The position numbers and the translations under genes are program-made. The notes under the pieces are model-generated. The model made no database searches, had not been told where the DNA came from, and saw only the letters and a program-made list of their open reading frames with translations. From Dehalococcoidia bacterium (GTDB lineage Bacteria > Chloroflexota > Dehalococcoidia > Lucifugimonadales > VXLM01), in contig CBDFHR010000009.1 in NCBI GenBank assembly GCA_965247555.1, forward strand, positions 1,876,045-1,940,044: a DNA stretch of 64,000 bases, read 5' to 3'. Shown here in pieces: positions 3,534 through 47,199 of this stretch; positions within the stretch are counted from its first letter, which is position 1; each line of letters opens with the position of its first letter.

Positions 3534-3756
3534 CTCGTCGTAAAAGAGATGGATCGTCTCCTCGCGGCCTCCGTTGCGCTGCTTTGTGATCGGTAGGGAA
3601 CTATTCGTCGAGGAGTGCGAGTCGTTCTGCACGAATCCCCCTATCGCAGTCGGTGGAGTCTCAGGTGCCCGGGTGTGGCGCGTCGAGGCGACCGCATTAT
3701 AGCATAGCCGCGCCCCGCCGCCATCATCAAGCGAACGAATTTCGCGAGGATGTGTC

Positions 3757-4332
3757 ATGATCGACTCACAGCGTCTCAATACTGAAAACCGCCTACGGAA
3801 CGCCGTGCGCATAGTTGTGATGGGGACGACGGGGGCGGGGAAGACGACGCTTGCTCGGCAGGTTGCGGAGGCGTTCGACGTGCCTCATGTCGAGTTGGAC
3901 TACTACCGGTTTCGCCCGAACTGGGTTGAGGTGCCCAACGACGAGTTCAGAGAACGGGTGAGGCACGTCCTGCAGGGCGAAAGATGGGTAGCGGACGGGA
4001 ACTACGGTCTCGCTCGGGACGTCATCTGGCCTAGGGCCACCATGCTGGTGTATCTGGACTACCCGATATACGTGGTGATGTGGAGGCTGTTTTGGAGGAC
4101 GATAGGCCGTGGAGTCCTTCGCAAGGAGCTGTGGCACGGTAACAAGGAGAAGCTGTGGTGGCATTTCTTTAGTCGGCAGTCGCTGTTTCTGTGGGCGCTG
4201 AAGACGCATTGGAGGCGGCGGCGGCAGATACCGTCACAGTTGGCGCGGCCGGAGCATGGTCATCTGGAGTTGGTACACCTGCGCACGTCGAAGGCGGCGC
4301 GGGAGTGGATGAGGGGGCTAGTGGAGAGATGA
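3757..4332 (+). CDS. P-loop NTPase, adenylate-kinase/topology-modulation-protein-like
   Basis: Walker A GTTGAGKTT sits near the N-terminus and the size is ~190 aa. The true start may be the GTG near 3805 (VRIVVMG). Confidence 0.6.
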   Translation: MIDSQRLNTENRLRNAVRIVVMGTTGAGKTTLARQVAEAFDVPHVELDYYRFRPNWVEVPNDEFRERVRHVLQGERWVADGNYGLARDVIWPRATMLVYLDYPIYVVMWRLFWRTIGRGVLRKELWHGNKEKLWWHFFSRQSLFLWALKTHWRRRRQIPSQLARPEHGHLELVHLRTSKAAREWMRGLVER

Positions 4333-4435
4333 TGCGGGTCGTTCGAGAGGGCAGCTCACAGAGGAAGTCGAACTCAGTAGAACGCCAATAGGGGGATGCA
4401 GCGTCGCTTCCAAACGTAACCGGCGTTCACCGACC

Positions 4436-5287
4436 CTAGCCAACCATCCGGTCGATGAGCCGGTCAAACATCCGATCGCTGACCAGTCTGCGTAGGAGGA
4501 GTACCGGCCTGGCGTACTGGCCGGCGGCGTAGCGTGTCTTGGGGCGCCTGGACCGGAGCGCCTTGAGGATTGTGTCGGCGATGACCGACGGCGGAGACCC
4601 GACCGAGCCGTAGCTCATCATGCCGTCTACCAGCTTATTGGCGATAGCGGAATAGGCGGAACTGCCGGAACGCTCCAGCAGCGGCCCGACCGCGACATTG
4701 ACAAAGTCCGTACGGATGATTCCAGGCTCGATGACGATGACGTCGATGCCAAAGCGCTTCAGCTCGAACCGCAAACAGTCCGACCATCCTTCGAGTGCGT
4801 GCTTCGTAGCGTTGTACCAGGACCCGAGGGGTGTACAGACCTTCCCGCCGATGGAGGAGATGTTCACAATCTTTCCCGCGCCTTGCTCTCGCATATAGGG
4901 AAGGACGAGCTGGGTCAGCCGCGCCGCGCCGAACAGGTTGACCTCGAACTGGTAGCGCGCTTCGTCGAGCGGCGTGTCCTCCATCGCGCCGTAGGAACCG
5001 AAGCCGGCGTTGTTGATGAGGATGTCCGTGCCTCCCTGTTCCTCATTGATACGCTCGACGCCCGCAACGACATCTTCTTCTATGGTGACGTCCATCTTGA
5101 GTGCAATGACGCCCATATCTTCGAGGTCTCGCATCCGCTCGATCCGGCGCGCCGCGGCATAGACGGTGCAGCCGTGCTCGAGCAGCTTCTTCGCAGTCGC
5201 CTTGCCTATGCCGGACGAGGCGCCGGTAATCAATACGGTCTGCCCAGCCACACCTCCGGCCTCATGTTGGTTCGGAATGGTCATCAT
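4436..5287 (-). CDS. Short-chain dehydrogenase/reductase (SDR)
   Basis: TGASSGIGKA cofactor motif, NNAG, and catalytic S..YNATK. Confidence 0.9.
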   Translation of the reverse strand: MMTIPNQHEAGGVAGQTVLITGASSGIGKATAKKLLEHGCTVYAAARRIERMRDLEDMGVIALKMDVTIEEDVVAGVERINEEQGGTDILINNAGFGSYGAMEDTPLDEARYQFEVNLFGAARLTQLVLPYMREQGAGKIVNISSIGGKVCTPLGSWYNATKHALEGWSDCLRFELKRFGIDVIVIEPGIIRTDFVNVAVGPLLERSGSSAYSAIANKLVDGMMSYGSVGSPPSVIADTILKALRSRRPKTRYAAGQYARPVLLLRRLVSDRMFDRLIDRMVG

Positions 5288-5505
5288 AGAATCTCCCCGG
5301 TTGGTTCACCCCATCGTAGACCATGGCTGCGCCAATTCACCATGAAGTCACGCCGAAAACTATGCAAAGCGCGCCACGAGACTGCCCCGGCTCTAGCAGA
5401 GGCGGTCGAGTTCGGAATGCCAACGGTATCCAAATCAGGGATCCGGGTAATGCGGAGGCCGGCATCGGTCAGCCTCGATCCCCTGGCGACCGGTTCTCCT
5501 TCTGA

Positions 5506-5895
5506 GCCTGTCGGTTTCCTTTATCCGTTGACCTCCCGGACATGGACCTCGACCGGATGCGCATGAGCCAGGCATTGGGAAACGTCCTGAGCAACGCCAT
5601 TCATTGCACCGAGGCCTGCGGGAGTATTGTGCTCAAGTCGGTGTTGGAACGCGACGCGACGTTGGCTATCTCGATTATCGATGACGGGATCGGTGTCGAT
5701 GCCGTAGACCTTCCGTACGTCTTCGATCGCTTCTACCGTACCGACCAGTCAAGTAGTCGTGGGATAGGGGGCACAGGTCTGGGATTGGCCATCACGCGAG
5801 CTATAATCGAGGCACATGGCGGTACGATTGCCGTAACAAGTGACGGGCTTGGACGGGGCGTGTCCGTGACCATTCGCCTTCCCCTGAACACGTGA
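5506..5895 (+). pseudogene. 3' fragment of a sensor histidine kinase gene (HATPase_c only)
   Basis: N-box ALGNVLSNAIHCT, G1 DDGIGV and G2 GGTGLGLAI are present. The frame opens only after TGA 5503-5505, so the HisKA/sensor parts are absent. Confidence 0.75.
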
Positions 5896-6156
5896 GCGTT
5901 ATCCTCCCCGGCCTTGAACTCCGCCGAAGGAACGGCGACCACAGCGGCCGAGGAGTTATGAATACAGTACGCTCAGGCCGGAAAAAGTGAAGCTGGGGGC
6001 ACTCGGATTTAGCTATAAATCGGCACTGTATTGAGACAACTCCCCACATGCGTTACCACAATATCGACGGCTTCCAGAGTAGGATGCGGTAGGCCAGGGG
6101 AGACGAACCCGCCGGCCAGCTCGAGGGCAGGACAGTTCCCGGTGTGTCACGTCTAA

Positions 6157-32646: not shown

Positions 32647-33077
32647 TCACTTCATACTCTTGAGTTCTTTCTTTATCATCTTTTCGATGCGCCTATCGTC
32701 ATCGCCTTTGAACATTCCTATCAGTCCGATCGTCGCCATGATGACTCCGGCGACCACCATGATCATTCCGCCGTACCGTATTATCCATAGCACGATCCAA
32801 AGATCGAGCAGGAAACTCATGAACACGCCCATGACGGCTACGACGATGCCAAGGAGAAGCAGCGCCAACCCCCCACCTTCTCCAATACGCCTCCGTAGAC
32901 CGCGGCTGCACCACCGACGACGGCGACGATTATTCCGACGGCTATGAGCAGGGTTGCTGCCAGGTCGAACAATAACGCAACGGACAGGCCAGCCACCGCA
33001 AGTACGATGCCGAAAATCATCATCCCGCCCATCGTTCCGACCTCCTGCGTGAAGTGCTTCAATCCCGTAATGTACAC
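32647..33077 (-). pseudogene. Small polytopic membrane protein split over two frames
   Basis: MGGMMIFGIVLAVAGLSVALLFDLAATLLIAVGIIVAVVGG.. (ORF 32838-33077) continues as ..LLLLGIVVAVMGVFMSFLLDLWIVLW..KKELKSMK (ORF 32647-) after a frame change near 32870. This is either a frameshift or a sequencing error. Confidence 0.45.
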
Positions 33078-33109
33078 GAACGCCCGCCAAATTTCTGGCG
33101 GGCGTTCGT
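33076..33109 (-). terminator. Strong hairpin just 3' of the tRNA (possible terminator)
   Basis: Perfect 14-bp stem ACGAACGCCCGCCA / TGGCGGGCGTTCGT with a 6-nt loop. There is no clear U-tract on the minus strand. Confidence 0.45.
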
Positions 33110-33118
33110 TATGCGTTC

Positions 33119-33193
<75 letters not shown>

Positions 33194-33234
33194 GCGTTAT
33201 TGTAACCGAATCCTGAATAAACGTGTCGTAATGT

Positions 33235-36235
<3,001 letters not shown>

Positions 36236-36463
36236 ACATTACGACTCGTTTATTTGGATAAAGCAAGTGCCTCTATCCTCATGCGCCCTCCCAATAGGGA
36301 GCCGCTTGAAGACAAGACATACTCGCAGGATTCGGTTGTTAAGGTGCTTTGCGCTCTCCGCCGACTGACGGCGCGCAGACTCTTGCGAAAGTTGTTCCTT
36401 CACCAGAGTCGAGAAACCATTCTACCGAACCTCCCACCCAGAGTCAATGCTTTAATTGATAAA

Positions 36464-36770: not shown

Positions 36771-37057
36771 CATTGATAAGTCGACCAGTCACCAAGGGCG
36801 TCTGTGTCCGGACAGGACGAGCATCCGGTCGAGCTCTCAAGAACCCCAATTGTCACTCCGCCCGGAGTGATCCGATAGTCGACCGCGACCGCGAAGCGCC
36901 GTATTGCCGTAGACTCCCAATTGGGCCCGCAGGTATAATATCCCCAATGTACTCGCGATACGTCAATGTGCCGTCGCCCCTTTCGTACATAGCCGACTTC
37001 CTTCTCAACCACCCACCTCTCGTGAACGCACTGTACTGTCTAACGAGGTCATAGCTC

Positions 37058-37615
37058 GTGGACAACGTTCGCAGGCTGTACGCGTCGCTCCTCTTTGCCG
37101 CCGGACTGGCGGTGGTCGTCGCCTCCTTCCCCGCTGACGTTCAGGCCAATGGGCGAGTCACAAACTTTCAGAAGAAGTTGGCCGGGCCCTACGAGGTAGG
37201 TCTCGGCACCATACCTCCCAGCCCCTCCGTCGGCAATCTGCACCTGGCCCTTACGGTCACCGACCCCGCCACAAAGTCTCCCGTCCTCGACGCGAAGGTC
37301 GAGCTTCAGGGAACCGGCCCCGACTCAACGAAGATCGAGATCGGCCCGACAGTCGCCACCAACAGCACGCTGGACCCAGCGTACTACGAGGTGAACACCT
37401 CCGTCGGGCGCGAGGGCATGTGGCTGTTCACGACGACAATCACCGACGCCGACGGCGAGCATTCGGCGGACTTTCAGGTGGAGGTCAAGAATTCCAGCCC
37501 GATTACCGGCATACTGACGCTGGTCGTGCTCGTTGCCTTCCTTATTATCTTCGGGCTTTCCATCCGCGCGTCACTCGGCGGAAAACGCAGGCGACGAAAG
37601 AAGCGGGCCGCCTGA
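37058..37615 (+). CDS. Secreted, C-terminally anchored protein (YtkA/FixH-like) of the copper cluster
   Basis: Signal peptide, Ig-like body, C-terminal TM helix and an RRRRKKR stop-transfer. It sits immediately upstream of copCD. Confidence 0.5.
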   Translation: MDNVRRLYASLLFAAGLAVVVASFPADVQANGRVTNFQKKLAGPYEVGLGTIPPSPSVGNLHLALTVTDPATKSPVLDAKVELQGTGPDSTKIEIGPTVATNSTLDPAYYEVNTSVGREGMWLFTTTITDADGEHSADFQVEVKNSSPITGILTLVVLVAFLIIFGLSIRASLGGKRRRRKKRAA

Positions 37616-37626
37616 TAGGGATTTCG

Positions 37627-39897
37627 ATGTCATTGCCGGATACGACAAGAAACTCACTCGCTTGGAAGGGAGTTGCCCTCGCCCTCGTATTCGCGGCGCT
37701 CGTCTTGTCCCGGCCCGACTCAGCTTCCGCGCACGCGAACCTTGCCGACGCCGACCCGGCTCCGAACTCGGTACTTGACACGCCTCCGTCGCGGATCACC
37801 ATCTGGTTTACGGAGCCTCTCGAACCCTCTTTCAGCGCCATTGAAGTTCTCGACTCCCGGGGAAGCCGCTTAGACAACGACGACAGCGCTGTCGACCCCC
37901 GCAATCCCACGGTCATGTACGTCACCTTGCAGGACGACCTGCCCAATGGCACGTACACGGTCGCCTGGCGAAACCTCTCCACGGTCGACGGACACACGAT
38001 TCGCGGCACGTTCTTCTATTCGGTTGGCGAGCCACTGTCGGCTCAGGCGTCCGATCTTCCGAGCGAACCTGCCCTACAGTCGCCCGCCGAGCCGTTCATG
38101 CGATGGGCCGTACTCCTCGGTGGCCTGTCGGTGCTCGGCGTCCTCATGCTGTGGCTCGTCGTCCTTCGGCCTCCGTTGTCGTCCATGAGTGACACCGAAG
38201 ATCTCTTGGCGAGGGTGCGCGCCAGGACGGACAAAATAGCCATTGCCGGCATCGTTGTGGCACTGTTCGGATCAATCGGGCATCTGCTGGTGCAGGCGTC
38301 ATCCGTCCACGAGGTGTCGATCCTCGATACCCTTGGAGAACCGATTCGATTCGTCGTAACGCAGACCGAGTGGGGCACGGGATGGCTCCGGCGCACCTCC
38401 CTTCTCATCGGCGCGCTCGGTCCGATATTGGCGCTGCTGCGACTTCGCAGTGCCCCTTCCCCACGCCGCGATACCGCTCTCTGGATATCGGCCTTCTTCG
38501 TGACGGCGCTCGCCATGGCGACCCTCAGCACGACCAGCCACGGCGCGGCAACCCCCGGAATCGAACTGGCCGCCACAGTGACCGACTACATCCACCTCCT
38601 CGCAGCGGCCTTTTGGGTAGGTGGCCTGTTTGGACTCGCGCTGATTCTCCCCGTCGTCTTCTCCCATTCCCCTGAGGGGAATGCCCGTCCGGTCATCCTT
38701 GCCGTCCTGCCGCGATTTTCCCTTGTGGCGGGACTGAGCGTCGTTGCACTCGTCGTCACGGGCCTCTACAGCGCTTGGGCGCACGTCACCGTCATCCCCG
38801 CGCTCGTCGTCCCGTATGGGCAGGTGCTCGTGGTGAAGACCGCGCTGGTCGGTGTGCTCTTGGTCTTCGGTGCCACTAACCTCCTGTGGCTGACTCCCGC
38901 CATTCGCGCAGACCGCAAGGCCGCTTCTCTACTCCGCCGAACGGTCACCGCCGAGGCAGCGGTCGGAGTCCTCGTCATTCTCGCGGCAGCCTACCTCACG
39001 AGCTTGGAGCCCGCCCGACAAGTCGCCTCTCGGCAGGGCATCGGCGTGCCGCAAAGCCTGTCGTTTGAGGACACCGCGGAAGGGGCCACCATCGATGTCG
39101 AAATCGAACCAGGACAGGTTGGCACGAATACGGTGACCGTCACACTCACCGACCGCCTCGGCGACCGAATTACGAACTCCTCAGGGGTGGACGTACGTCT
39201 GACCTACCTCGACGCCGACCTAGGAGAAGGTCTGCTGTCGACCGAGCGAAGTGGGGAAGGCGAGTATCTTGCCACCGAAGTCCCGATCAACATCGTCGGT
39301 CCTTACCAGGTGGAGGTGGCCGTCCGTCGTCCCGACACCTTCGACGCTCGTACGGCGTTTCGCTTCGAGGTCGTCTCCGGTGGAGGTGTCAGCAGTTCCG
39401 CTATCTTCCCTTCGGAGGACACAGGTCGACTACTATTCGGCGTCGAGCTTGCCGTGTTGGGCTTCATGTTCCTCGCGGTCGGTATTCCCCTTGGAGGCTG
39501 GTACTCGCGTCGCGGATTGGCCGTCATGACCCCCGGCCTCATCGTGTTCATGATCGGAGCGGGTGTCGTCTTTACCGCGCAGTTCGGGGAAACCGGAACT
39601 TCGGGAGACCGGAATCCATTCCCACCCAACCCTGAGTCGCTCGCCATAGGCAGCAGGGTCTACACCGAGACTTGTGCCTCCTGTCACGGCGCTCAGGGAC
39701 GGGGCGACGGCCCTGTTGCCGCCGGTCTCGACCCCCCGCCTGCCAATCTCATCGTCCACGTGCCGCTCCATCCCGACAGGACGCTCTTCGACTTCATCCA
39801 CGACGGCATCGCGGGCACGTCGATGGTCGGTCTCGCCGATAGGTACACCGGCGATGAGATCTGGCATGTAATCAACTACATCAAGACGTTAGAATAG
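37627..39897 (+). CDS. CopC-CopD fusion protein with extra periplasmic domain and C-terminal cytochrome c
   Basis: CopC-like AHANLADADPAPNSVLDTPPSRITIWFTEPLE...TVAWRNLSTVDGHT, about 8 TM helices (CopD-like), a YtkA-like segment and CASCHG heme-binding motif. ATG 37627 was chosen over the ORF-track start at 37420. Confidence 0.8.
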   Translation: MSLPDTTRNSLAWKGVALALVFAALVLSRPDSASAHANLADADPAPNSVLDTPPSRITIWFTEPLEPSFSAIEVLDSRGSRLDNDDSAVDPRNPTVMYVTLQDDLPNGTYTVAWRNLSTVDGHTIRGTFFYSVGEPLSAQASDLPSEPALQSPAEPFMRWAVLLGGLSVLGVLMLWLVVLRPPLSSMSDTEDLLARVRARTDKIAIAGIVVALFGSIGHLLVQASSVHEVSILDTLGEPIRFVVTQTEWGTGWLRRTSLLIGALGPILALLRLRSAPSPRRDTALWISAFFVTALAMATLSTTSHGAATPGIELAATVTDYIHLLAAAFWVGGLFGLALILPVVFSHSPEGNARPVILAVLPRFSLVAGLSVVALVVTGLYSAWAHVTVIPALVVPYGQVLVVKTALVGVLLVFGATNLLWLTPAIRADRKAASLLRRTVTAEAAVGVLVILAAAYLTSLEPARQVASRQGIGVPQSLSFEDTAEGATIDVEIEPGQVGTNTVTVTLTDRLGDRITNSSGVDVRLTYLDADLGEGLLSTERSGEGEYLATEVPINIVGPYQVEVAVRRPDTFDARTAFRFEVVSGGGVSSSAIFPSEDTGRLLFGVELAVLGFMFLAVGIPLGGWYSRRGLAVMTPGLIVFMIGAGVVFTAQFGETGTSGDRNPFPPNPESLAIGSRVYTETCASCHGAQGRGDGPVAAGLDPPPANLIVHVPLHPDRTLFDFIHDGIAGTSMVGLADRYTGDEIWHVINYIKTLE

Positions 39898-40030
39898 GAA
39901 GAGACATGTTCCGGTTGCTTCGAGGATCGTAGATTGCAGGTTCAGAGCACGCCATGCGACTCTAGGCCAAAAGGCATATTTGAGGGTTTGACGACATGCC
40001 GAAATAAGCCTGTTAGGTTGTGTTGACATT

Positions 40031-40791
40031 TCATCTTAGCCATATGAGCGCACCGACGAAATGGAGGAACCCGAGGTATCTGTTCGCCAACTTGTCGAAC
40101 CGGGAGAAGATGCGGCGGAAGTGCTTGATCTTGCCAATGAAGCATTCGACAAGATGACGCTCCCGGTAGAGATACTCGTCGTATGAGTGGGCCGCCTTCC
40201 GGTTGGAGCGAGGAGGTATCACCGGAACTGCACCGCTCCTAATGATCGACTCGATGAACTGGTTGGAGTCGTATGCTCGGTCTGCGACCACATACTCACT
40301 ATCGAGTCCGTCTATGAGTTCCTCAGCTTGAGTGATATCGTGCTCCTGCCCTCCGGTCAACCTGAATCTCAACGGGTTGCCGAGGCCGTCGACACCGACA
40401 TGGACCTTTGTAGTGAACCCACCTCGGCTGCGACCGAGGGCTTGAGATAGTTGCCCACCGTTTTTTTGGGAGCGCCCGCAGCGGAATGGTGGGCCCGGAC
40501 TACGGTACTGTCGATGATCAGGTACTCCATGTCAGGGTCATCGATGAAATGCTGATGCATTCGTTCCCATATTCCGCCCTCACACCATCGGGCAAACCGC
40601 TTGTAGACGCTGTTCCATTTCCCGTACTCGGAAGGCAGTAGCCTCCACGGCGCACCAGACCTGCTCATCCAGATGATGGCCTCGATGAACCGCTTACAGT
40701 CGGACTCCTGTCCGACATACAAGTCTGGCTGACTACGAAGGAACTCCAATACCCGCGACCATTGTTCTGGAGATAGTTTAATTGTTGACAT
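40031..40791 (-). CDS. IS5-family DDE transposase with programmed -1 frameshift
   Basis: OrfA ends ..VVRAHHSAAGAPKK. There is an A7 run on the coding strand (T7 at 40461-40467). Shifting frame gives ..GRSRGGFTTKVHVGVDGLGNPLRFRLTGGQEHD..VADRAYDS..RERHLVECFIGKIKHFRRI. Confidence 0.88.
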
Positions 40792-40823
40792 ATACCCAGT
40801 ATAATATAAATGTCAACACTACC
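40036..40823 (-). mobile_element. IS5-family (IS427-like) insertion sequence
   Basis: Termini GGTTGTGTTGACATTTCA (40036-) / AAATGTCAACACTACC (-40823), flanked by TTAG and CTAG. Confidence 0.88.
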
Positions 40824-40825
40824 TA

Positions 40826-40968
40826 GGTAGTGTTGACATTTCACGTTATTCCGCTTTTCCTTGTCATTGCGAGTGAAGCGTGGAATCTAAAAGTTTGTGC
40901 TTGCGCGATGATTTTAGATTCTTCACTCCGCTCTGCTACGTTCAGAATGACAGAATGTCAACACTACC
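40826..40968. mobile_element. MITE derived from the adjacent IS (same termini), carrying an internal G-element pair
   Basis: GGTAGTGTTGACATTTCA ... AGAATGTCAACACTACC, flanked by CTAG on both sides. The interior holds GTCATTGCGAGTGAAGCGTGGAATCTAAAA / TTTTAGATTCTTCACTCCGCTCTGCTACGTTCAGAATGAC. Confidence 0.8.
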
Positions 40969-40999
40969 TAGTACAAGTCCATGAAAAGATCGGCACCTA

Positions 41000-42013
41000 T
41001 CAAACAACTCGACCTTGAGAACCGAGAGTAGTGTCTGCCCCTTTACCACGTAAACGGGGAACTTCTCTGATTCCCGAACCGTCGGGAAACATGTGGGATT
41101 GGCGGTGACCGTACTCTTGTCCAGAGCCGTTACCGCCAAGTCGTGCAAGTGGCTCCTTTGTCATGGGGGGATTAAAGTTTGTGACCAAGATCTCTTGATT
41201 TATGGTACGCTTTCGACCCACTCGTTGCTCGGCCTCACTGGTCTTCATGCCTGACGAGGATTGAATCGGCGTAATAGCGTATCCATCAAATAGGTCTCTA
41301 ATGTCTTGAGTATCATATGAGGAGAGTATCCAGAGTCCCTTGGTTCTTCTAAGGTGTTCAGCGATGGAGCGGTGATCGCGCTCGCCGCGCATGTTGAACT
41401 TGTAATTGACACCATTGCCAAGATAAGGAGGGTCAAGATACATCACAGTAGTAGGGCTATCGTATCGCTCCACACAGACTCGCCAGTCTAAATTCTCGAT
41501 TAAGACCGTGCGAAGACGTTCGTGGACAGGCAAGATGCGTTTGTGCAACGTTTTCAAGGCTCCTATGAGTCGGTTTCCATGTCCACCATCTCGGATGCTT
41601 GTTTGGAAGCGAGGATATCTGGCTTCACCACCCCAACCGGCCATAATTAGGTAGTAGAACCTATGGGCTCGTTGAATGTCATTGAGAGTTAGCGGATCCA
41701 AAGAAGCTAATCTGTTGAACTCGGCACGAGATACCAATTCCCATTCAAACGATGCGATTAGCTCGTCGGGTTTCTCCCTAACTACACGAAAGAAGGTTGT
41801 TAATTCCTCATCAACGTCGTTCAGAACCTCCACTTGGCTCTTGGGCTTGCCGAACAGCACCCAGGCGGCACCAGCGAATGGTTCAACGTAGCACGTGTGA
41901 GGCGGGATCATAGGAATGATGAACTTACGTAGACGCGACTTACCTCCAACCCACTTGATTGGGCTGTTAAGCATTCCATTGTGGACTTTGCTACCTTGAG
42001 AGGTCATCTCCAA
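41000..42013 (-). CDS. D12-class N6-adenine DNA methyltransferase (Dam-like)
   Basis: IKWVGGKSRL, motif I EPFAGAAWV and motif IV LDPPY. The last ~60 aa are low-complexity. Confidence 0.88.
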   Translation of the reverse strand: MEMTSQGSKVHNGMLNSPIKWVGGKSRLRKFIIPMIPPHTCYVEPFAGAAWVLFGKPKSQVEVLNDVDEELTTFFRVVREKPDELIASFEWELVSRAEFNRLASLDPLTLNDIQRAHRFYYLIMAGWGGEARYPRFQTSIRDGGHGNRLIGALKTLHKRILPVHERLRTVLIENLDWRVCVERYDSPTTVMYLDPPYLGNGVNYKFNMRGERDHRSIAEHLRRTKGLWILSSYDTQDIRDLFDGYAITPIQSSSGMKTSEAEQRVGRKRTINQEILVTNFNPPMTKEPLARLGGNGSGQEYGHRQSHMFPDGSGIREVPRLRGKGADTTLGSQGRVV

Positions 42014-42032
42014 CTTCCTCTACAACTCAAGA

Positions 42033-42049
42033 TGTCTCTAATAGAGACA
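42033..42049. promoter_or_regulatory. Perfect 17-bp palindrome in the divergent MTase/HTH-nuclease intergenic region (candidate operator)
   Basis: TGTCTCTA-A-TAGAGACA lies 20 bp from the MTase start codon. It is upstream of both candidate starts (42057, 42093) of the HTH protein. Confidence 0.5.
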
Positions 42050-42056
42050 CTTTAGC

Positions 42057-43175
42057 ATGACTGACTGTTCATGTCAAGCGTCAAGGATACAAATGCGGCG
42101 GTTCGGTGAAAAGCTCAGATTGTTACGGACTGAACATGGTATGACTTTGAAGAGTCTAGCCATGTCGCTAGGCTACAAGGCTCATGGGCACATCAGCGAA
42201 ATTGAGGCTGGTAAAAAGATTCCCACAACAGGCTTTGTCCTTGCAGTGGCAAAGTTATTCAGCGTGTCCGTCGACAGCCTGCTCATGGACGGTGTAGAGA
42301 TCAATCTGTCCCACCCGTTGAGAGAAGAAGGCGCGATAGGGGTGGGAGTCCCCTTTGCAGATAGACTGCCGACCAACAACGAGGTTGAGCGATTCCGATT
42401 GATCTTTAGCACATATCAAGATGGAACGGGCATGCTTGCCTCCGAAGATGGTAGAACGCTTCCGGGGTGGCGCGACTTTGAGAGGTCAATAGCTTTAGCA
42501 TTTGGTGGCATCGCCTCTGAGAGTAAAGATGTCTTCGACATCAGACTAACCGATGCTGGGCAGAGCGGAGTTTATTACGGCATCTCATGCAAGATGCGTA
42601 GGGAACTCTCCGGCGTTGCTCGCCACGGACGAGTAACTATAGAGCTATCGGACTCAGCACGCAAGTTCTGGAATCACTTGATGACCAAGGGGATACATCA
42701 AGCGAACTACAAACAGCATCCGTCGGACGTTGGTCGCGCTTTGATCGAATTGGTATCCGAATGGCATGATGCTGCCAGTATCGATCAAGGTGGCGATGTT
42801 GAATTATCGAAAAGTTGCTATCTGATCCTTTCTTGGGATTCAGCGGGATGGTATCAATTGCATCAATTTCCTTTGTCTCTGCCGAATCCGAATCAGCTAA
42901 AGTGGTCTTTCCCTGCATACAAGAGAAGTGGCAAAGTTTCTGTCGGCAATCATCTCAATGGCGATGATGCAAGTGGTCGTATTTTTGAGTGGTACGGGGA
43001 ATCGGGAGGACAGTTGAAGTACTATCCCCTTGCGGTGGGCGCAACCTGGGAATCTGTCCAATTCAAACTGGAACCTCTGCCGACTGATCGGGAGCACGGT
43101 GTTCTCCACAAAGTTCAGAGTTACTTCCCTGACCAATGGGCGGCGGTTTTAGAAGCTAGAAGATCGTTGGACTAA
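42057..43175 (+). CDS. XRE-type HTH fused to a Mrr-like (PD-(D/E)xK-type) domain; candidate restriction/defence nuclease
   Basis: The N-terminus FGEKLRLLRTEHGMTLKSLAMSLGY..GHISEIEAGKKIPT is HTH_3-like. The C-domain has WRDFERSIALAFGG..SKDVFDIRL...YYGISCKMRRE (D ... (S)xK arrangement). The likely true start is ATG 42093. Confidence 0.6.
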   Translation: MTDCSCQASRIQMRRFGEKLRLLRTEHGMTLKSLAMSLGYKAHGHISEIEAGKKIPTTGFVLAVAKLFSVSVDSLLMDGVEINLSHPLREEGAIGVGVPFADRLPTNNEVERFRLIFSTYQDGTGMLASEDGRTLPGWRDFERSIALAFGGIASESKDVFDIRLTDAGQSGVYYGISCKMRRELSGVARHGRVTIELSDSARKFWNHLMTKGIHQANYKQHPSDVGRALIELVSEWHDAASIDQGGDVELSKSCYLILSWDSAGWYQLHQFPLSLPNPNQLKWSFPAYKRSGKVSVGNHLNGDDASGRIFEWYGESGGQLKYYPLAVGATWESVQFKLEPLPTDREHGVLHKVQSYFPDQWAAVLEARRSLD

Positions 43176-43228
43176 GCTAAGGAGCTATACCGATCAGGAA
43201 CCTAGCCCCTATAGCGACCATCGTTGTC

Positions 43229-44728
43229 GTGGCCGCGGTTTTCGCGGCATCGCCGGTGTACGCGCACGGGTTCGATGAGAGGTACGACCTCCCGCTTCCT
43301 CTCAACATGTTCATGATCGGGGCCGCCGCGACGGTCGCCGCCTCGTTCGTCGTCATCGGTCTATTCGTCAATAAGCGACAGGGCGAGTTTCGGTACCCCC
43401 GATACAACCTGCTCTCCGTACCGATGCTTGGCGCAGTCCTGCGGAGTGGGGTATTCACTGGCGCTGTCAAGGTCCTCGGCGTTGCCGTCTTTCTGCTCCT
43501 AATCGCCACAAGCCTGTTCGGCGTCAACAAGCCGGTCGAGAACCTCTCGCCCACCTTCGTCTGGATCATCTGGTGGGTCGGAATGGGCTACATTTGCGCG
43601 CTGCTCGGCAACTTCTGGATGCTCGTGAACCCGTGGAGAACCATGTTCGAGTGGGTCGAGGGATTCGTCGGAGGCGACGGCGAAGAGGACGAGGGGCTGA
43701 TTGACTACCCGGAGAGTTTGGGAGTCTGGCCTGCCGTCATACTGTTCTTCGTATTCGCGTGGCTGGAGAATGTCTACAACGGTGCGCAGGCCCCCTTCAA
43801 GCTCGGTCTGTTTGTCCTCGTGTACTCTGCCATCACATGGGCCGGTATGCTCGTTTTCGGCAAGCACGTGTGGCTACGTTCCGGCGAGGCCTTCTCCGTG
43901 CTGTTCAGCCTGTTCGCGCGCTTTTCGCCAACCGAGATCGGGACTTCGACCGACGGCCTCTGTGATGCGTGCGGCGCATGCGCCGATGAGACGGAATCGT
44001 GCGTCGACTGCCTGGAGTGCTTCCAGCGTGCCGATCCCGATGAGCGCCAATTCAACCTCCGCCCCTTCGCCGTCGGTCTCGGCACTCGCGGCGTCGTCTC
44101 AGCCTCGATGGCCGTCTTCGTCATCCTCACCCTTGCCACGGTCACCTTCGACGGCGTCTCCGAAACTAGCGCCTGGGCGAACCTGCAAGAAGAGCTCCTT
44201 CCCGCCATTTCCCCGCTGCCCGTGGACACCTTCGGCACCATCGATACACTTGGCCTGCTCGTGATCCCCGCCCTGTTCCTCACGGTCTTTCTCGGCTTCT
44301 CTTGGGTGCTTCGATTGTTCGAGGGGACTACCGACTCGCCCGTCTTCGACGTTGCCAAGGTCTTCGTTCTGTCATTGGTTCCCATTGCCCTTGCCTACAA
44401 CATTGCCCACTTTATCTCGTACTTGGTTTTATCAGGACAAGCGATCATTCCGCTCCTTTCCGACCCGTTTGGTTTCGGCTGGGACCTGTTCGGCACTGCC
44501 GAGGATCGAATCAATGTCAACATAATCACCGTTGGATTCGTCTGGTGGGTCTCGATCGTCGCCATCGTCCTGGGACACATCCTCTCCGTATACATCGCCC
44601 ACATCATCTCGCTCCGTCGGATGCCGACTTCCGCGCTGGCCGTCAGGAGCCAGTACCCGATGCTCGCTCTGATGATCGTCTACACGGCGACGAGTCTCTG
44701 GATCATTGCCCAGCCCATCGCCAACTGA
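43229..44728 (+). CDS. Polytopic membrane protein with Cys-rich loop; 5' end apparently truncated
   Basis: More than 10 TM helices and the loop GLCDACGACADETESCVDCLECF. The frame is open back to TAA 43178-43180, encoding a signal-like ..LAPIATIVVVAAVFAASPVYAHG with no ATG. GTG 43229 is the first conventional start. Confidence 0.65.
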   Translation: MAAVFAASPVYAHGFDERYDLPLPLNMFMIGAAATVAASFVVIGLFVNKRQGEFRYPRYNLLSVPMLGAVLRSGVFTGAVKVLGVAVFLLLIATSLFGVNKPVENLSPTFVWIIWWVGMGYICALLGNFWMLVNPWRTMFEWVEGFVGGDGEEDEGLIDYPESLGVWPAVILFFVFAWLENVYNGAQAPFKLGLFVLVYSAITWAGMLVFGKHVWLRSGEAFSVLFSLFARFSPTEIGTSTDGLCDACGACADETESCVDCLECFQRADPDERQFNLRPFAVGLGTRGVVSASMAVFVILTLATVTFDGVSETSAWANLQEELLPAISPLPVDTFGTIDTLGLLVIPALFLTVFLGFSWVLRLFEGTTDSPVFDVAKVFVLSLVPIALAYNIAHFISYLVLSGQAIIPLLSDPFGFGWDLFGTAEDRINVNIITVGFVWWVSIVAIVLGHILSVYIAHIISLRRMPTSALAVRSQYPMLALMIVYTATSLWIIAQPIAN

Positions 44729-44774: not shown

Positions 44775-47199
44775 TCAATTTAGTAGGAGAGGAGGTCGGA
44801 TGAGGTTGCGGAGGGAGTGTGCCCACGGTCGGTAGCTGTGGGGGCCGCTCAATGCTGGTACGGATACTTCAGCCCAGTCGCTCACCCGTGTCTTGGACAC
44901 GGCTTCATGCCGCTGGTGTGTGGACAGGTCATCAGGTTCACGTCGATCACAACGACGCCGACTGCGACAGAGCTCTGACAGTTCGCCGTTCCGATCCAAC
45001 TGGATCACCTTGACCATACGGTGCGCTCCCCGTATGGTCCAACTCATACCCGCTTCTTCATGCGGTTCGCAATGAGCTTGTCTCCGTTGCTCTCCATGGT
45101 TCCCAAGGCTCCGCGCGTCCGGGGGAGCGTTGGGCACCCGGTTGCGCCAGTCCATTCCAGTACTCACGTTGGACTCGACGTACTCTCTGTCTCTGTGTGC
45201 CATCTTGGTCTGTGCGGGTGGTGCTGAGGACATCGCCTGCCGGGCAGCCGTCGTTGATCCTACACGTATGCCATCGTAGACAGAAGTTCCGATCCGTCTG
45301 CCATAGCCTCGCCCACACGCGCGAGATGAGGTGGGAGCCGTCCAACTGGAAGATAGCGTTGCCGAACTCCTCTGTGCCACTGCGTATCCAGTTGGCTCCG
45401 TCACCGCCCACAACGAACAGCTTCACCCCCTCCAGAGCGTACTGCTTACCCCACTCAAGACTCGCGCCCTTCCAGAACGGCATCTGTTCTGATGCGTGTC
45501 CATACACTCGCTTGCCCACCAGTTCGTACCGATCATCTCCCACATTTCGCCAGCCTCGATACGCTATACCGCTCTTGACCTCGTAATGAGGCTGCTCTTC
45601 GCGTTGCAGGTGGACCCACACCCCATCCGCCTCGGTATAGAGGACATCTGTCTGCTGTTGTCCATCGCATACATCCTCTCCACGCTCGAAGCACGCTTCC
45701 CACCGACTGGGCTCATCATCGATCGCTCTGTGTCCAACATCCCGCAGCAGTCGATACACCGTCGATGTGGACAGTACCCCCGCCGTCAGTGCGCTCACCA
45801 TCTCGTCCGCCATCCGAAAGGGCACCGCACTGGCTATAGACACGCTGCTTTCTGTTAGCGTCGGACTCGCCTGTCGATGGGACTCCCAGCTAATACCATT
45901 TCACTTGGATGGGGCCATAAAGGATGCTGGGAGGCGTTGGACGTTATCTTCGATCCAGTCCCATGCTGCGAGTGAACGCACGCGCTCAGGATCAGATGCC
46001 AATTCACTCAGGTAGGCGTTCACTGCCTTCACCTTCTCCTCTATGCTCCCGTATATCCTGCCCTCCACCCACCGACGGACCTCCTCGAACACCCGCTCAG
46101 CAGGATTCAACTCAGGACTGTACGGAGGCTGCACTATCGTCGGCAGTCCAACGCTCCGCACCACCTCGCTCCGGTGACCACGCGCTCCATCCCACACCAG
46201 CGCTTCTATGTCCGAGTGATGCTTGAATCCATTGACGGCCTCCGCTATCGACTCGGACTTCATCGACTCGATCCACCTCCACAGCAGCCTCCCCCTCCGA
46301 ACGTCTACTACCACAAACACGTATATCCATCGGTACACCAACTGCACTCGCTGACGCACCTTCACTCCACGACGACCCCATACCCTCCGAACCGTCCCCC
46401 GCAAACCCACTCGCATCTCATCGGCAAAGCCAAGAACCGTCTCAGAACTCACCCCCGCTCCGGCAAGGGCTCGACTCAGGCCCCTACCCGATCGGAGTCG
46501 GGCACATGCTTTTTCCACACCCTCTGCACATCAAGGTCTGCCTTCTCGTGAAATGCGCGAGGCACCTTCGGCGAACATCCCAACCTCTTGAGCAGACTGT
46601 ACACTCCGCCCGGCTTGTAGCTCACTTCATACTCGGACTCTATCCAATCTCTGATCTCGCCCGCCGTCTTGAAGCGCCCCTTCGACATCTCCTGTGCCAA
46701 TCCCCGTTCTTCCTCTGTGCTCAGATAACGCGGCGTGCCCCTGCCTCCCTTCTTATGAGAGAGCACCTCCTGCACACCTCCCTGTCTATACCAGCCCACC
46801 CATGACTGTACCGTCCGATAATGGACCCCTACCACCGAGGCCACTTCTGAGAGCTGCCGTCCTGAACGCAGTAGCCACAGTCCATGCAGCCGAGTACGCA
46901 GTGTACCGTCCCGCTCTGCAAGATATGCTGCCTTCAGAGCCTCCGGTGTATCCTCTGTGCGCCAATCCACTCGAAACGGTCGACCGATCATCTGATGCCC
47001 TCCAACTCCATGAGTTGGTATCAGCATCCACAAAGTGGCAGGACGCTTCTAGCTGCTTTATGGCCTTATTGTTCGCAAATGGTATAAGATGCTCATCTAA
47101 CGCAATCCTGCTCTGGCCATCCTGATCACGATATATCCGGCGTCTGATCACCACTTCCCCAAATCGAGTCACCATCGTCCGCTCACGAGACCCCAACAC
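44775..47199 (-). pseudogene. ISLre2-family transposase gene, frameshifted and split by an IS630 insertion
   Basis: N-terminal piece 47199->~47050 (TRFGEVVIRRRIYRDQDGQSRIALDEHL). Middle piece 45843->45058 (YTEADGVWVHLQ, EVKSGIAY, VGGDGANWI, FQLDGSHL). C-terminal piece in another frame (LGNHGEQRR..EEAGMSWTIRGAHRMVKVIQLDRNGEL). Confidence 0.65.
45901..47033 (-). mobile_element. IS630-family element (two-frame transposase) inserted in the ISLre2 gene
   Basis: OrfA holds HTH/winged-helix text (LSEVASVVGVHYRTVQSWVGWYRQGG..SLLKRLGCSPKVPR). OrfB is the DDE part (FADEM..WDGARGH..PPYSPELNPAERVFEE). Element ends were not resolved. Confidence 0.8.

Follow-up and report, generated by a model that had tools for sequence, protein, structure and literature searches.

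Introduction

Natural fusions of a controller (C) protein to a restriction endonuclease (REase) were described by Liang and Blumenthal in 2013 (PMC3850674), who reported such C-REase proteins in five PvuII orthologues from cyanobacteria, Meiothermus, and Niabella. One of them, CR.NsoJS138I, is active both as REase and as C protein, and linker length and competitive dimerization were discussed for these fusions (PMC3850674). Here, we analyze a locus with this architecture in a 64,000-nucleotide (nt) stretch of a Dehalococcoidia bacterium genome (assembly GCA_965247555.1, contig CBDFHR010000009.1, positions 1,876,045 to 1,940,044). We refer to this whole stretch as the window and number positions from its first letter. 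Segment 39904-43186 of the window carries a gene for a D12-class N6-adenine DNA methyltransferase (MTase) and, divergent from it, a gene in which a helix-turn-helix (HTH) controller is fused to a predicted endonuclease.

Other described systems bear on this locus as well. A 2025 review cites the C-REase fusions again and, in its section 13, describes a mode of control in which the C protein works solely at the MTase promoter, with RNA polymerase excluded from overlapping divergent promoters (PMC12707154). Besides the PvuII-type double C-boxes, Sorokin et al. (2009) distinguished palindromic single-operator C-box classes (motifs 7, 8, and 10; PMC2632904). In systems of the SsoII/Ecl18kI type, an HTH domain bound to an operator between the two divergent genes sterically blocks the MTase promoter (PMC2760811).

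The locus in the window shares the architecture and likely the logic of these published systems, and it is not a new kind of defense system. Like CR.NsoJS138I, CR.Mru1279I, and the cyanobacterial fusions (PMC3850674), its product has an N-terminal Xre-type controller fused to an endonuclease, which in the published proteins is of Type IIP; a linker of ~25 aa is also a feature of the cyanobacterial fusions. As in the PvuII group, the MTase gene is divergent, the operator is intergenic, and fused and unfused orthologues coexist, the fusion having arisen more than once. There are also differences. Systems of the PvuII group have an N4-cytosine MTase and double GACT/AGTC C-boxes, and their fused members come from cyanobacteria, Meiothermus, and Niabella, whereas the window has a D12 N6-adenine MTase and a single 17-bp palindrome on the predicted start site of the MTase promoter, and its family is centered on Chloroflexota, Acidobacteriota, and Armatimonadota. 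Moreover, the nuclease has a PADLOC model of its own. Its Pfam and PDB matches concern the HTH only, and with no direct comparison to R.PvuII made, its lineage appears to be different from that of PvuII.

M.EcoRV is a Dam-like MTase. By class description, the C.EcoRV-type systems (motif 7; PMC2632904) resemble the window in having divergent M and C-R genes and a palindromic C-box; in contrast, the nuclease in the window is not an EcoRV homologue (hhalign probability 1.4%) and its controller is fused. The predicted action of the controller at the MTase promoter, by exclusion of RNA polymerase, corresponds to the mode described in the review (PMC12707154). As in the regulatory methyltransferases of the SsoII/Ecl18kI/EcoRII type (PMC2760811), one R-M (restriction-modification) enzyme carries its own N-terminal HTH. 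There it resides on the MTase, whereas here it resides on the endonuclease, as a mirror image. Because of this location, repression of the MTase would scale with the concentration of the REase and would not be auto-repression by the MTase.

We estimate at roughly 0.8 the probability that segment 39904-43186 is a compact Type II R-M cassette, with a C protein fused to its REase and an operator on its MTase promoter, that entered between a copCD-cytochrome c gene and a membrane-protein gene in an ancestor of a Dehalococcoidia/SAR202-like lineage. The family would be the second, unrelated restriction-enzyme family with natural controller-endonuclease fusions, after the PvuII group. Since it offers 15 fused and 62 split orthologues with one operator/promoter layout, the question raised in 2013, how fusion affects the timing of restriction versus protection, can be approached by comparison.

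Results and Discussion

A controller domain fused to a predicted endonuclease

The fused gene is located on the plus strand at 42093-43175 and encodes 360 aa. Its frame is open from 42057, and the HTH and REase parts lie in one open reading frame (ORF; 42057/42093-43175) with no stop codon between them, as in C-REase fusions. An earlier note on this DNA, made by a model from the letters and a list of translated ORFs, had described a 372-aa ORF with an XRE-type HTH. The ORF (42057-43175) and the HTH both held up, and the start codon was revised: the likely start is ATG 42093 (Met13), which is preceded by a ribosome-binding site (AAGGA) and on which gene calls and the N-termini of homologues agree. 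Gene calls in two assemblies give this identical 360-aa product. With the MTase gene likely starting at ATG 42007, the intergenic gap is 85 bp and not the 43-79 bp given earlier.

The protein is composed of an Xre-type HTH (aa 1 to ~65), a disordered linker of ~25 aa (~aa 70-95), and a nuclease domain (aa ~95-360). In the 372-aa ORF, the HTH matched HTH_31 (5e-09) and HTH_3 (4.6e-08) at aa 15-74. Profile matches to C.BclI (4e-4) and C.AhdI (3e-3) were also found, with Foldseek template modeling (TM) scores of 0.7-0.8. The AlphaFold model of the full-length protein had a mean predicted confidence (pLDDT) of 84.6, with the linker disordered at aa 73-83. Because the fold search with the full-length protein was dominated by the HTH domain, the nuclease domain was also modeled alone (pLDDT 90.8; predicted TM score 0.84).

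Sequence and profile searches of the fused protein against Pfam, NCBIfam, and PDB matched the HTH only and gave no match to the nuclease domain. This domain was recognized by the PADLOC model REase_II PDLC03417, which covered aa 100-363 and 251 of 262 model positions (E=9.6e-48). In an alignment of 29 sequences, E130, E143, K145, D149, S165-C166-K167, and E184 (360-aa numbering) are invariant. The weak top Foldseek neighbors of the domain are all PD-(D/E)xK nucleases, namely EcoRV, found repeatedly, the Hjc resolvase, and ThaI. Probably, the domain belongs to the PD-(D/E)xK enzymes, with the motif in an S-x-K variant and no close solved relative. This fold assignment, a prediction, draws on the PADLOC model, the conserved acidic and Lys residues, and the linkage to the MTase described below.

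The earlier note had seen the strings WRDFERSIALAFGG, DVFDI, and YGISCK, which are indeed present in the translation of the 42057-43175 ORF, and had called the C-terminal domain Mrr-like while leaving it without a named family. An Mrr-like domain was rejected: there is no Pfam Mrr_cat match at E<=0.01, the catalogued Type II REase hidden Markov model (PDLC03417) fits, and an MTase gene adjoins the nuclease gene in 79 of 80 loci. The same evidence bears on the idea of a methylation-dependent nuclease (Type IV, Mrr-like), or of an effector outside R-M, next to a Dam-like MTase that is unrelated to it or antagonistic. A D...(S)xK pattern resembling that of Mrr and the occurrence of HTH-fused nucleases in other defense systems (seen as weak PADLOC RmrA matches to the HTH) would agree with such an enzyme. 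The RmrA matches, however, are confined to the HTH (aa 13-77), and a nuclease that attacked the product of this MTase could not be so strictly co-inherited with its orthologues. We consider a Type IV nuclease or other effector highly improbable.

Conserved linkage to a D12 methyltransferase

The MTase gene (41000-42007, minus strand) encodes 335 aa, in which the motif FAGAAW precedes DPPY (alpha-type order). The protein matched PF02086 (1.4e-22) and the PADLOC model MTase_II PDLC03253 (1.6e-51), and its match to the dam subfamily TIGR00571 was below the cutoff. The assignment as a D12-class N6-adenine MTase with these two motifs, made from the letters, is thus borne out by PF02086 and by the translation. 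The C-terminal ~50 aa are poorly conserved among orthologues. A terminator-like hairpin is present on the minus strand at 41008-41026, with a 7-bp stem followed by TTGTTTGATA. It overlaps the last eight MTase codons and may be the terminator of this gene.

To collect relatives of the cassette, a protein search (1108 matches) was combined with a scan of one genome per species, which yielded 199 confirmed loci; family counts given here rest on the best 80 of these 199 genome loci. The 80 loci are mostly from Dehalococcoidia, Anaerolineae, Chloroflexia, Pyrinomonadaceae and other Acidobacteriota, and Armatimonadota, plus a few others. In a search for named relatives on plasmids and phages, the one match was a "hypothetical protein" with 38% identity, encoded by a Micrococcus plasmid in an uninformative context, and phages gave no matches.

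An MTase orthologue (59-93% identical) lies directly upstream of the nuclease gene, in divergent orientation, in 79 of the 80 loci, and the remaining locus starts at the REase gene, without upstream DNA. The two genes therefore form a conserved module, and homologues of the nuclease are consistently found next to D12 methyltransferases, a point that the earlier note had proposed to check. Its central proposal, an MTase-linked restriction module in which regulator and nuclease are one polypeptide, is also supported by the ORF without a stop. Thus, the locus has two features of a Type II R-M system, namely a stand-alone MTase with catalytic motifs and a separate gene for a predicted endonuclease strictly linked to it.

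A predicted operator on the methyltransferase promoter

The predicted operator (C-box) is a palindrome at 42033-42049, TGTCTCTA-A-TAGAGACA, with two 8-bp arms around one central base, and it lies over the predicted MTase start site. Its perfect 17-bp symmetry, recognized in the earlier note, was verified in the sequence and is far beyond chance. A search with the pattern TGTCTC-N5-GAGACA (<=3 mismatches) found the operator between the two genes in 80 of 81 loci with upstream DNA, so a conserved C-box, as known from controller systems, is present in this family. As a lone palindrome, it falls into the palindromic single-operator classes (PMC2632904). Aligned intergenic regions gave the consensus TGTCTCTAnTAGAGACA-ttnTAnCA-N14-TGTCAA. 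Conservation per position within the palindrome is 97-100% across Chloroflexota, Acidobacteriota, and Armatimonadota, and in 64 of 80 loci the distance from the palindrome to the downstream TGTCAA is exactly 22 nt.

When read on the minus strand, this consensus becomes TTGACA-N14-TGn-TAnnnT, an extended -10 sigma-70 promoter facing the MTase gene; the commonest -10 hexamers among family loci are of the TAnnnT type. In the window, the predicted MTase promoter (42049-42077, minus strand) is TTGACA-17 nt-TAAAGT with a TG extension. It was the only site reported by a promoter scanner in 40900-43400, with 10 of 12 matches, and its -10 element reaches to 42049, where the palindrome has its last base. 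Fused and split loci have the same geometry, with a spacing of 22 nt in the window and in L003, L013, L019, and L038 and of 23 nt in L077. Every conserved intergenic position is explained by the palindrome together with the minus-strand MTase promoter.

The predicted transcription start of the MTase gene (about 42040-42045) falls inside the operator, so that a bound HTH dimer should exclude RNA polymerase. Because the conserved palindrome abuts the MTase promoter, the fused protein most likely represses this promoter. An alternative is that the HTH mainly activates and represses its own (CR) promoter, as in PvuII, and overlaps the MTase promoter incidentally or with a secondary role. The operator is also upstream of the CR start codon, and most characterized C proteins autoregulate the CR promoter, PCR (PMC12707154; PMC2632904). 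However, there is one palindrome per locus and no PvuII-type double C-box (no GACT..AGTC pairs in family loci), the conserved intergenic positions are all accounted for as described above, and conserved -35 and -10 elements on the plus strand were not found. A primarily autoregulatory HTH is therefore unlikely in our view, and repression of the MTase promoter is the reading that we develop further.

A model for regulation by the fused protein

In the proposed mechanism, the cassette encodes a Dam-like (D12) MTase and, divergently, a predicted endonuclease whose N-terminus is joined in translation to the C protein by the flexible ~25-aa linker. The HTH domain would recognize the palindrome TGTCTCTAnTAGAGACA on the start site of the near-consensus extended -10 MTase promoter. 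When the cassette enters a naive cell, transcription would start first from the strong MTase promoter, and the genome would become methylated. As C-REase builds up, an HTH dimer would occupy the operator and keep RNA polymerase off the MTase promoter. The MTase would then be throttled, and competition with the weaker, putative promoter of the fused gene would perhaps be relieved or modulated; in parallel, the nuclease domain would cut incoming unmethylated DNA. Binding of the HTH to the palindrome, the direction of regulation, and nuclease activity are predictions made from sequence.

Several results weigh against this reading or parts of it. The nuclease belongs to a catalogued, biochemically uncharacterized Type II REase family, and its PADLOC match shows cataloguing only. 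In the Foldseek search of PDB, no match to the nuclease domain was significant (best E 1e-2, TM about 0.25). Homology to EcoRV was considered and rejected: the family profile gave the hhalign probability cited above against EcoRV, whose sequence was checked against the PDB entry, and there was no Pfam Endonuc-EcoRV match. Analysis of palindrome depletion in 0.84 Mb of host DNA revealed no unique outlier as a candidate recognition site; depletion of 6-bp palindromes is generic in this DNA (CTCGAG, 0.29; TGGCCA and CTGCAG, 0.33). In addition, the promoter scanner found no promoter for the fused gene in 40900-43400. The one plausible plus-strand -10 element, TAGCAT at 42053-42058, would center the operator near -24, which predicts auto-repression and not activation. 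Finally, an in-frame GTG (42343) occurs in the linker after the purine-rich AGAAGG, where the R gene of split relatives has its start codon. Initiation there could yield a nuclease-only product, in which case the fusion may not be the sole active form.

Fused and split orthologues

The fused or split state was typed in 81 loci (the 80 genome loci and L002) and in the window, using the invariant motif PGWRDFER as an anchor and reading upstream to the first in-frame stop. Fifteen loci are fused (the window, L002-L010, L013, L019, L022, L038, and L077), 47 are split with the HTH ORF in a different frame, 15 are split by an in-frame stop between HTH and nuclease, and five could not be classified. 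Thus, C and R are separate genes in 62 of the 77 classifiable loci, window included, and fused in 15. The statement in the earlier note that the controller is normally a separate protein agrees with this majority, and the implied novelty of the fusion does not stand, as such fusions were published in 2013.

In split loci, a separate ORF of ~70-80 aa encodes the HTH; it immediately precedes the nuclease ORF and runs in the same direction. L030 illustrates this, with an HTH ORF at 5001-5213, terminated by TAA, and the REase ORF at 5215-6054. This layout is, by gene order, the canonical M<- ->C-R arrangement of controller-regulated Type II systems. The C stop is in frame with R in 15 of the 62 split loci (24%; L011, L012, L014-L017, L020, L025, L027, L031, L043, L052, L055, L056, and L072), near the one third expected by chance, and in these loci a single point mutation or read-through would create a fusion. 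Some database proteins of ~270 aa appear to lack the HTH. For at least one of these, P0061, the HTH-less form was rejected as a start-codon miscall of a fused ORF, and others, such as P0120 from L030, are true split R genes.

We placed these typed states on a neighbor-joining tree of nuclease domains, in which the fused members occur in at least four separate clades. It is possible, if on balance rather doubtful, that the REase polypeptide is itself the repressor of its cognate MTase promoter, acting through the single operator, and that this fusion is selectively favored under some conditions. Repeated independent C-R fusions amid a split majority with identical operator geometry would then reflect such selection. 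MTase shut-off would be tied stoichiometrically to REase concentration, a candidate benefit would be competitive dimerization that delays nuclease activity, and the family would provide a natural fused-versus-split test set for the delay hypothesis.

The cassette and its insertion site

In sliding 400-nt windows, the guanine-plus-cytosine (GC) fraction is 0.61-0.65 at 37.0-39.8 kb, 0.46-0.54 at 39.8-43.2 kb, and about 0.60-0.63 beyond. Taken as a whole, the dip across 39.9-43.2 kb is from 0.62 to ~0.48. This compositional break corresponds to the AT-richer islet reported in the earlier note (~40.0-43.2 kb). The islet was also said to be wedged into a copper-handling locus, and the cassette does interrupt a copC/copD-cytochrome c gene string.

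Five relatives (L084-L088) have an empty site, in which p185, copCD (756 aa), and the gene for a 512/513-aa membrane protein (81-95% identical) are contiguous, with a 28-bp gap; copCD and the counterpart of the gene at 43229, which an insertion would have separated, are thus neighbors there. Comparison with these sites by blastn placed the limits of the cassette at 39903/39904 and about 43186/43187. Homology to the R-M-free relatives stops at 39903, 6 nt past the copCD stop codon, and is back at about 43187. The left non-coding arm (39904-40016) is 95.6% identical to L002, compared with 86% in the flank, and the right end spans 43176-43186. Without the insertion sequence (IS) and the miniature inverted-repeat transposable element (MITE) described below, the cassette is 2.33 kb long and holds no mobility gene. 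The exact boundaries and empty sites document a 2.3-kb R-M cassette without mobility genes inside an operon-like gene string.

Two further loci, L002 and L003, have the M/CR pair at the identical site between the copCD-cytochrome c and membrane-protein genes, with the same GC dip and with flanks about 86% identical to the window (~86% for L002 and ~85-86% for L003). The contexts of the remaining 77 family loci are unrelated to that of the window. Horizontal delivery of the module, as proposed in the earlier note, is supported by foreign composition and by the empty sites; the IS and MITE, considered in the last section, did not bring it. L084 (ERZ25069191 contig, 5972-6001) has the most similar flanks (97% at the nt level) yet lacks the cassette, whereas L002 and L003, with 86%-identical flanks, contain it. 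From this distribution, the cassette would either have spread among lineages by homologous recombination through the flanks or have been precisely lost.

Recombination and selection within the cassette

The window and L002 are about 98-100% identical from 39904 to about 42380, that is, from the left arm through the linker. From about 42400 on, identity to L002 is 73-80% and the window is closer to L003. By segment, identity to L002 and L003, respectively, is 99.3% and 91.2% in the M gene, 98.8% and 76.7% in the intergenic region, 97.9% and 75.3% in the HTH and linker, and 78.1% and 86.7% in the nuclease domain. Synonymous divergence (dS) from L002 is 0.022 in the M gene and 0.045 in the HTH and linker, versus 1.02 in the nuclease domain, so that dS jumps from 0.045 to 1.02 within one gene. 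The recombination breakpoint is at 42380-42400, at the junction of linker and nuclease domain. Recombination has exchanged the cassette between lineages, and this breakpoint coincides with the boundary of a protein domain. A second mosaic boundary was observed in the left flank: identity to L002 is 96.9% at 33001-36463 and 86.7% at 36804-40016, with an unaligned gap between.

The ratio of nonsynonymous to synonymous divergence (dN/dS) is 0.11-0.13 for the nuclease domain (against L002 and L003) and 0.11 for the HTH and linker (against L003). By these ratios, both domains are under purifying selection, which argues that the fused gene is not decaying. R-M systems often lose REase function, and the contrast between a 99.3% identical M gene and a 78% identical nuclease domain could suggest that the fused ORF is inactivated or decaying, that the MTase is effectively an orphan epigenetic enzyme, and that the fusion is a neutral loss of the C stop codon. 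However, dS of 0.02-0.045 versus 1.02 and the low dN/dS of the nuclease domain identify the contrast as recombination and not relaxed constraint. All family-invariant residues are kept, and an intact fused ORF is present in 10 Dehalococcoidia (the window and L002-L010; 62-84% identity) and in four other clades. We regard decay as very unlikely.

An IS5-family element and a MITE in the left arm

The islet also contains the ~0.8-kb IS5-family element and abutting MITE with the same termini that the earlier note had reported. The IS (806 bp, 40017-40822, minus strand) has 16-nt terminal inverted repeats, GGTTGTGTTGACATTT and AAATGTCAACACTACC, and is inserted at TAG. Its two ORFs (40369-40791 and 40031-40372) correspond to the two halves, N-terminal and C-terminal, of a single IS5-family transposase (NF033580; 1.5e-32 and 1e-30) and match DUF4096 and DDE_Tnp_1 in Pfam. 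The MITE (143 bp, 40826-40968) contains no ORF and has perfect 18-nt inverted repeats identical to the IS ends, with TAG on both sides. The terminus pattern occurs four times in the window, compared with 0.02 expected by chance, and nowhere outside the two elements. The window reads TAG-IS-TAG-MITE-TAG, whereas the uninterrupted sites of L002 and L003 have a single TAG (...CCTGT-TAG-TACAAG...). Thus, the larger element is placed in IS5 by its DDE transposase, its terminal inverted repeats, and the TAG duplication, and a short, non-coding sequence with the termini of an autonomous IS and a target duplication is a MITE.

Both elements are located within the low-GC stretch and adjoin the MTase gene, as might be expected if one of them had delivered the AT-rich islet, R-M genes included, in the manner of a composite transposon; the earlier note had counted them among the parts of the islet. 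L002 and L003, however, carry the R-M pair at exactly this position with neither element and with the uninterrupted TAG. In addition, the IS and MITE are on one side only, within the left arm of the cassette, their terminus motif is found nowhere else in the window, and the other 77 family loci lie in unrelated contexts. The earlier note had regarded relatives with the same genes but no IS or MITE as evidence against its proposal. Such relatives do exist; they contradict delivery by the IS, which has next to no likelihood, and leave a horizontal origin intact. As the two elements are absent from the L002 and L003 site, they are later, independent insertions into the left arm of a cassette that was already in place.

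Genes flanking the cassette

At 43187-43229, the ancestral ATG of the downstream membrane-protein gene, which L002 and the empty-site relatives retain, has become ATA in both the window and L003. The next canonical start codon is GTG 43229, which gives 499 aa versus 512-513 aa, with the first 14 residues lost. This loss may be a polar consequence of the cassette insertion. On the other side, the copCD-cytochrome c gene is called as two ORFs of 354 and 355 aa in the near-identical contig L001 (98.6% at the nt level; 3581-5805), a split that reflects a frameshift or else an error in that assembly. The gene order shared with relatives (ADH, AP endonuclease, and other genes) stops at about 44787. 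Beyond this point, an IS-rich stretch (44787-47033) contains an ISLre2-family transposase fragment (45058-45843) followed by a two-ORF IS630-family transposase (45901-47033).

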